A stretch of 64,000 nucleotides of DNA from a virus. Positions 6,775 through 7,704 of the stretch are shown piece after piece (position 1 is the first letter of the stretch; each line of letters opens with the position of its first letter). The notes under the pieces are model-generated. The model was not told the origin of the DNA and searched no databases. It saw nothing but the letters and a program-made list of their open reading frames with translations. The DNA lies in IMG/VR virus record IMGVR_UViG_3300013794_000014, positions 1 through 64,000 of that record. The stretch is one strand, 5' to 3'. A program made the position numbers and the translations under genes.

Positions 6775-7704
6775 ATGGTATTTGAATTTGAACTTGAACC
6801 TAAACTTAAACAAATTGTCAAAAACACCCTCGAAATAATTACATTAGAAGAACTAAAGAACGTATTGAAAAAGAAACACAAAGTTGCTTACATTGGGTTT
6901 GAACCTAGTGGCAAAATACATTTAGGACATTATTTGCAAATCAAGAAGATGGTAGACTTAGAACAGGCGGGTTTTGATATTATAGTCTTGTTAGCCGACT
7001 TACACGCCTACCTTAATGGCAAAGGCAATGGTGATTTCAATGTAATCCACGAATATGCTAAATACAATGAAAAAGTAATTAAAAAGGTGATTAGGAAACT
7101 AGGGCTAGAAAACGCTCAATTCATATATGGTTGTAGTTTTCAATTAGATCCAGACTACACACATGATTTACTTGAATTGGCAACTAAGACAACAGTGAGG
7201 CGTGCTACTAGAAGTATGGAACTAATTACCAGGGAAATGACAAACCCAAAGGTTGCACAACTACTGTACCCATTAATGCAAGTAAACGATATAAAACACT
7301 TAGAGGTAGATGTAGCGGTTGGTGGTATGGAACAGAGAAAGATACATATGTTAGCAAGAGAACTACTAGATTGTCCACCAGTCTGTATACATAATCCTAT
7401 ATTGACGAGTTTAGATGGTAAAGGCAAGATGTCATCAAGTAAAGGCGAAAACAGTTATATTGCGGTTGATGATGATCCTGAAACGATTAGGCGTAAAATC
7501 ATGAAGGCTTACTGTCCAATAGGAGTCGTGGAAAACAACCCTATACTTGAAATTGCCAAGTATTTTGTCCAATATCCATTAGAAGTTGGTAACGCAACCG
7601 TTTCTTCCTACAATGAACTTGAACAATTATATCGTGACAAAAAGGTTCATCCACTTGACTTGAAGGAGGTGGTCTGGTGTGCATTGATAAATTTGAATAT
7701 ATGA
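6775..7704 (+). CDS. tyrS: Tyrosyl-tRNA synthetase, archaeal type, very similar to M. jannaschii TyrRS
   Basis: [15 protein letters not shown] (HIGH), [43 protein letters not shown]. Confidence 0.97.

Follow-up and report, generated by a model that had tools for sequence, protein, structure and literature searches.

A virus-encoded archaeal tyrosyl-tRNA synthetase without the hairpin tip that stacks on the anticodon

Introduction

A tailed virus of methanogenic archaea carries a gene, tyrS, for a tyrosyl-tRNA synthetase (TyrRS) of archaeal type from which the tip of the anticodon-stacking hairpin has been deleted. We consider it probable that its product is a working, host-derived enzyme, maintained by selection, that binds G34 from one side only and sustains the supply of Tyr-tRNA. 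Giant viruses and some large phages are known to encode synthetases. The original prediction held that such enzymes are rarely reported in archaeal viruses, and this agrees with the literature that we searched, where we found no report of a synthetase in a virus of archaea, although absence there is not proof. A loop-minimised TyrRS in an archaeal virus thus appears to be new; loop loss in virus-encoded enzymes and its engineered counterpart have already been published.

The virus is a complete IMG/VR record of 141,059 bp, and the window analysed here is its first 64 kb (64,000 nucleotides). The record has direct terminal repeats of 92 bp, and CheckV rates it as 100% complete. Alongside many ORFans, the genome has genes for a tail-tube protein, an ATP-dependent DNA ligase and a 7-deazaguanine pathway.

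Results

The gene and its product

The tyrS reading frame extends from 6769 or 6775 to 7704 on the plus strand (309 codons; protein P0001), and the ATG at 6775 is the likely start because a Shine-Dalgarno-like sequence lies 5 nt upstream of it. The features of the gene are, in window coordinates:

6764..6769, plus strand: Shine-Dalgarno-like GGTGAT, read from the sequence, 5 nt before the ATG at 6775
6775..7704, plus strand: tyrS, 309-aa archaeal-type tyrosyl-tRNA synthetase (PF00579, 1J1U match, predicted fold)
6919..6930, plus strand: HIGH motif (HLGH, residues 49-52), in invariant columns of alignment A1
7426..7440, plus strand: KMSKS-type motif (KMSSS, residues 218-222), followed by the virus-only two-residue insertion EN (alignment A1)
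7579..7602, plus strand: shortened beta-hairpin LEV-GN-ATV (residues 269-276), with the deletion junction V271/G272 at nt 7588 (alignments, AF2 model and a second viral copy, P0135)
7648..7659, plus strand: HPLD with H292 and D295, equivalent to H283 and D286 of the Methanocaldococcus enzyme (Mj), in invariant columns

The protein is an archaeal/eukaryal-type TyrRS of class Ic, a family whose members act as homodimers that bind tRNA across their subunits. It matches PF00579 over profile positions 4-285 of 292 and scores 153.3 bits, where the curated cut-off is 21.1; its best solved structure is that of M. jannaschii TyrRS (MjTyrRS, 1J1U; E = 8e-116), and it aligns over its full length with the Methanococcales enzymes at 60-65% identity (63% with MjTyrRS). 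An AF2 model, built with the cellular alignment as input and unable to show tRNA binding, has a pLDDT of 88.7, a pTM of 0.87 and a confident C-terminal domain, and Foldseek superposes it on MjTyrRS structures with a TM-score of 0.89 across the Rossmann catalytic and helical anticodon-binding domains.

Residues were compared in two alignments, A1 with 21 sequences and a larger one with 90, made up of the viral copy and 89 cellular sequences from Methanococcales, Methanobacteria and Methanopyri. Mj numbering was checked on the M. jannaschii database sequence P0027, in which RPEKFGG contains F261 and HPMD contains both H283 and D286. The tyrosine pocket is intact: Mj Y32, Y151, Q155, D158 and Q173 correspond to viral Y39, Y165, Q169, D172 and Q187, all invariant across the 21 sequences, which bears out what had been read from the sequence for the first four of these residues and for HIGH and KMSSS. 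In MjTyrRS, C1-G72 and A73 of the acceptor end are read by R174, K175, R132 and the backbone of V195 (PMC1934993). The viral enzyme keeps the three side chains (R132, R174 and K175 as R146, R188 and K189), and has Ile in the place of V195, where the contact is made through the backbone.

Origin and host

In the tree, viral tyrS falls inside the Methanococcales clade (SH-aLRT 98), at a position within the clade that is not resolved, on a terminal branch of 0.6 against a median of 0.057, about ten times longer. The second viral copy, described below, carries a segment, PSLGWKAP, identical to that of a MAG labelled Methanothermococcus, and GWK is found only in sequences with that label or in unlabelled ones that group with them; the donor was therefore probably a Methanothermococcus-like member of the Methanococcales. 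The virus of the window later lost four residues of this segment.

Several other traits appear to tie the virus to Methanococcales as its hosts. At the DNA level, tyrS, a gene for a type I 3-dehydroquinase and one for a V4R-domain protein are 65-70% similar to Methanococcales counterparts in many of 40 genomes, the tyrS counterpart being matched in all 40. The tRNA-Arg(GCG) of the virus (window 28358-28435, plus strand), whose anticodon is the archaeal-style one for Arg, is about 81% identical to Methanococcales tRNAs, and the viral genome has a G+C content of 33%. The V4R-domain protein and a thymidylate-synthase-like ORF (11975-12475, minus strand, and 15408-16055, plus strand) likewise appear to be of host origin. 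Stretches of 24-44 nt also match Methanococcales genomes at 83-100% identity; those at window positions 16005-16040 and 12644-12694 match several of the genomes at 86-100%, and one contig (G016:C140) in two places. They could be CRISPR spacers or chance matches, and we do not count them as evidence for the host.

Loss of the anticodon hairpin tip

In the complex of MjTyrRS with its tRNA, F261 and H283 stack on either side of G34, with which D286 forms a hydrogen bond (PMC10135938, PMC1934993). The viral enzyme departs from this arrangement. Its H292 and D295 are present, so that the retention of H283 and D286 in an HPLD sequence was correctly predicted, but the hairpin tip that carries F261 is deleted. 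The 12 residues Mj 254-265 (TIKRPEKFGGDL) align to five viral residues, EVGNA, with the seven residues KRPEKFG gone, F261 among them; a deletion of about 7 aa had been placed near 7588, and the junction lies exactly at that nucleotide. The segment between Mj P252 and Y269 is thereby 9 residues long in the virus, as against 16 in Mj. In a set of 91 representatives (50% identity clusters) its most frequent length is 20, and a few have 8-9. In the AF2 model, the deletion leaves a tight two-strand hairpin (strands 269-271 and 274-276, pLDDT > 90). With the tip gone, G34 would no longer sit between F261 and H283.

The deletion is virus-specific among the relatives examined, in keeping with the original prediction, to which an alignment of cellular orthologs had been attached as a check: the loop is present in 89 of 89 cellular sequences, and its residues R257, P258, K260 and G262, conserved at 100% in them, are missing only from the viral copy. 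Stacking of G34 with F261 is the cellular archaeal mode of binding, and is not defining for the catalytic family.

Other changes and the end of the gene

Further changes are found only in the virus. E107 is replaced by Ser, as had been noticed, and the adjacent and otherwise invariant S106, beside the tyrosine pocket, by Cys; G198 is Ser, beside the A73-binding V195. There are three insertions: NG (2 residues), 4 residues within KVIKKV, and EN (2 residues). The protein stops about 6 residues before the Mj terminus and ends in INLNI, with the C-terminal helix shortened and the conserved PIR absent, and we found no frameshifted continuation downstream; the replacement of the final helix by INLNI that had been described is better called a shortening. 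In total, the viral TyrRS departs from the family at 14 of 123 near-invariant columns, the maximum of the set, tied with Methanopyrus. The enzyme resembles MjTyrRS and its Methanococcales relatives in domain order, catalytic motifs, tyrosine pocket, readers of C1-G72 and A73, H283 and D286, and is unlike them in the missing KRPEKFG tip, the shorter C-terminus, the three small insertions, the changes at S106, G198 and other invariant sites, the tenfold-longer branch and its being encoded by a virus.

The unusual end of the gene coincides with a repeated motif:

6700..6721, plus strand: palindrome-like ATTGATGAATTTCAAT with ATTTAA after it, 54 nt ahead of the tyrS start codon; a candidate promoter or operator common to several genes
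7683..7698 (or to 7704), plus strand: degenerate copy of the motif, ATTGATAAATTTGAAT, overlapping the last tyrS codons (LINLNI-stop) and preceding the next gene, at 7724

The general form, ATTGAT-N3-TTTCAAT-ATTTAA, is seen upstream of several genes in the window and also at 62421-62436. Near-identical 22-mers precede the genes that start near 594 (motif at 553-574) and at 2152 (motif at 2105-2126), and with at most one mismatch the motif has 18 matches against 9.2 expected; none of 100 shuffles has as many as 18. It overlaps the stop-proximal codons of two genes, that upstream of tyrS (MNFNI-stop) and tyrS itself (INLNI-stop). A simple reason for the odd ending of tyrS may therefore be that the upstream signal of the next gene has encroached on the end of this one. 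The strong Shine-Dalgarno sequence and the motif that tyrS has in common with other genes would be its expression signals.

Selection and a second viral copy

Changes in the viral TyrRS are concentrated where the family itself is variable. Only 9 of the 118 columns with at least 95% conservation are changed (7.6%), versus 40 of the 54 with less than 60% (74%); taken over all columns, the protein diverges from the consensus by 33%, and a binomial test against a uniform spread of changes gives P = 4e-11.

An exhaustive search of representatives returned a second viral copy, P0135, 84% identical by HMMER and 81% by BLASTP, on a contig of 676 bp (L105, from ERZ27236680). Its downstream gene matches the gene next to tyrS in the window, so P0135 comes from a related virus. 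Both copies have the 7-residue deletion, the EN insertion, G198S and the short C-terminus. Between them, pN is 0.11, pS 0.64 and dN/dS 0.08, values that refer to one partial relative and to its C-terminal 118 codons, KMSSS included, with synonymous sites near saturation. As the deletion is present in two diverged viral copies, it predates the split of the two viral lineages and has been kept under strong constraint. P0135 seems truncated at its 5' end, an appearance that we rejected as not real: L105 opens with 51 nt that repeat, as reverse complement, a stretch lying about 50-100 nt farther along the contig, a fold-back of the kind that assembly errors typically produce. L105 also shares with the window (9016-9092) an intergenic element about 50-75 nt long, present there as two tandem copies about 82% identical at 446-567, in the longer spacer that there separates tyrS from the next gene. 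Among short proteins, a search for further viral-type TyrRS fragments gave none, the other matches being cellular. Identical DNA carrying tyrS is present in more than 10 assemblies, evidence of a stable population, and since these contigs are 100% identical there is no variation to analyse.

Viral tyrS is intact, under purifying selection and not decaying. It could have been thought that the deletion and the C-terminal truncation are the early stages of pseudogenisation of a passenger gene after capture, given the long branch, the several indels and a protein end overwritten by a regulatory-looking motif. The signal of selection largely refutes this, and we consider it very improbable: the frame is open behind a strong Shine-Dalgarno sequence, conserved columns are spared, the predicted structure is a confident one, the same indels are found in a copy as far away as pS = 0.64 at a dN/dS of 0.08, and the sequence is identical across many samples.

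Selection could also have been preserving something other than an aminoacylating enzyme, namely a TyrRS-like protein repurposed as a binder or sequestrant of tRNA-Tyr, or one that pairs with host TyrRS subunits and alters charging. A branch ten times the median, a record number of departures at near-invariant columns, the virus-only insertions and the shortened C-terminal helix would fit such a change of role. Yet all the catalytic and substrate-binding residues examined are intact, the changes track the conservation pattern of the family, and the low dN/dS over a segment that includes KMSSS is what a retained enzyme would give, and we find this reading quite improbable.

Translation and related genes in the viral genome

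A partner tRNA-Tyr or a suppressor tRNA had been put forward as something to look for in the full genome. ARAGORN and Rfam detect neither in the complete 141 kb, where the sole tRNA is tRNA-Arg(GCG), and the coding density of 92% under the standard code gives no sign of recoding. Tyr makes up 5.73% of the viral ORFs versus 3.7-4.5% of eight Methanococcales loci, about 40% more. The excess is modest and Gln is far more skewed (4.1% versus 1.3-1.6%), so composition alone does not single out tyrosine; Thr is likewise higher (6.3% versus 3.5-4.4%), and Lys (8.0% versus about 10.5%) and Glu (6.5% versus about 8.4%) are lower. With this composition, the viral proteome looks less thermophile-like than that of its presumed hosts.

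The 3-dehydroquinase mentioned above, AroD (16593-17267, plus strand; PF01487, E = 1.4e-49), is host-derived, at 65-70% DNA identity to Methanococcales genes, and may be linked to tyrS through the supply of aromatic amino acids or of p-aminobenzoate. The viral genome has neither prephenate dehydrogenase nor chorismate mutase, and therefore no full tyrosine pathway. Genes for a QueD-like (PTPS) protein, a radical-SAM QueE-like protein, FolE2, DUF366 and GATase-QueC lie at 29243-29821, 32885-33556, 43303-44184, 45759-46340 and 46264-47730, and are consistent with a 7-deazaguanine modification pathway.

Discussion

The closest precedents for a TyrRS without this loop come from giant viruses and from the laboratory. 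Mimivirus TyrRS and some other giant-virus TyrRS naturally lack the F261 loop (Hu et al., 2023; PMC10135938). When MjTyrRS 254-265 is cut to 5-6 residues the enzyme is still active, its amber suppression through tRNA-CUA rises 1.8-4.3-fold, and the authors describe G34 as switching from insertion to attachment on H283; mimivirus TyrRS, active without the loop, also outperforms wild-type MjTyrRS in amber suppression with the CUA tRNA (PMC10135938). The engineered variants Loop-1, -2 and -3 have lost the very segment that is shortened in our virus, with F261 gone and H283 and D286 in place, and the five residues left in the viral enzyme are the length left in Loop-1 and Loop-2. They differ in being laboratory constructs of mimivirus-based design on an Mj backbone, whereas the viral enzyme is natural, has another residual sequence and carries further changes. 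Mimivirus TyrRS (2J5B) and its giant-virus relatives are, for their part, also virus-encoded enzymes of the archaeal/eukaryal type with a small loop replacing that of F261, but they are only about 30-35% identical to the archaeal-virus enzyme and belong to viruses of eukaryotic hosts. Phages offer a weaker parallel: TyrRS is found there too in viruses of prokaryotes (e.g. Acinetobacter phage MD-2021a), but the phage collection held only bacterial-type tyrS, at no more than 31% identity over 76% of the query and with another anticodon-binding domain.

The placement of viral tyrS inside the Methanococcales, rather than with the giant-virus copies, shows no common descent with the latter. Since all members of this clade keep the loop, its loss is independent of that in giant viruses, and the resemblance is convergent. 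The two short-hairpin representatives that lie on long contigs have giant-virus-like gene contexts: P0251 (L106) and P0235 (L107) each have a hairpin of 9 residues and a contig of about 50 kb, and the genes around them include a fused type II topoisomerase, an Erv1/Alr oxidase, a PIF1 with an intein and a patatin. The recurrence of short hairpins in such contexts and in an archaeal virus means that loop loss arose more than once in viral TyrRS. The loop can also be kept: scanning IMG/VR with the viral TyrRS protein gave no relative, and with the alignment only L012, a 357-kb contig with a giant-virus-like TyrRS, 30% identical, that retains it as NRPEQYGG. A PDB search with P0245 had human TyrRS, not mimivirus TyrRS, as its best match, and the missing loop of the mimivirus enzyme is therefore taken from PMC10135938.

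Because the published loop-cut MjTyrRS is active with the same residual length, we infer by analogy that the viral enzyme would be active too, with one-sided G34 binding and a reduced dependence on position 34. In the scenario that we think probable, a lineage of large tailed viruses acquired tyrS from a host among the Methanococcales, which most likely resembled Methanothermococcus, and selection has maintained the gene since. The enzyme would activate tyrosine and read the acceptor end of host tRNA-Tyr (C1-G72 and A73) as the cellular enzyme does, whereas H283 would hold G34 on one side only and D286 would form a hydrogen bond with it, as described for mimivirus TyrRS. We would expect normal or good charging of tRNA-Tyr(GUA) with a weaker dependence on position 34, and the likely use of such an enzyme would be to uphold the supply of Tyr-tRNA while a tyrosine-rich viral proteome is made during infection. 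The relaxed anticodon dependence and this physiological role are, like the activity itself, conclusions by analogy; the shortened C-terminal helix without PIR and the departures at near-invariant columns, S106C and G198S among them, may count against an active enzyme.

The loss of the loop could instead be the very purpose of the viral copy, with an enzyme that charges tRNAs that the host TyrRS handles poorly, such as non-GUA tRNAs or a tRNA-Tyr whose position 34 is altered, hypomodified or hypermodified, and so keeps translation going under a tRNA-directed host defence or shut-off. In support of this, loop-minimised MjTyrRS and mimivirus TyrRS are better than wild-type MjTyrRS with a CUA tRNA (PMC10135938), hairpins of 8-9 residues recur in other TyrRS, two of them in giant-virus-like contexts, and the virus encodes QueC, QueD, QueE, FolE2 and DUF366. 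However, its complete genome has no suppressor tRNA or tRNA-Tyr of its own and uses the standard code at high coding density; D286, the reader of G34, is kept, and the enzyme therefore probably retains its preference for G34; a tRNA that has been cleaved could not decode even if it were charged; and we know of no host defence directed against tRNA-Tyr. We hence judge this alternative unlikely. Of the changed anticodon recognition originally proposed, an altered and probably relaxed reading of position 34 stays reasonable, and experiments on mimivirus TyrRS and on the equivalent engineered deletion in MjTyrRS back it directly (PMC10135938), but nothing indicates the charging of non-cognate, modified or damaged tRNAs, or the evasion of a host shut-off, by an enzyme that retains D286.

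We offer a broader conjecture tentatively and would not call it likely: that viral TyrRS, in giant viruses of eukaryotes and in this archaeal virus lineage, have repeatedly adapted under selection by losing the loop that stacks on G34, and so trade checking of the anticodon for faster or more tolerant charging. If true, translation would continue with a host tRNA-Tyr that lacks modification, carries too much of it at position 34, or is attacked, and the viral 7-deazaguanine pathway could conceivably be involved in such tolerance.

The MjTyrRS scaffold is widely used in genetic-code expansion. A natural loop-minimised relative, 63% identical to this most-used orthogonal synthetase, would be worth trying as a scaffold for the same purpose. 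For the virus, tyrS is a link between an unusual 141-kb genome and Methanococcales hosts. For the enzyme family, the independent recurrence of a trimmed hairpin in giant-virus TyrRS, in an archaeal virus and in engineered MjTyrRS suggests that the loop carries a general cost wherever maximal discrimination can be dispensed with.
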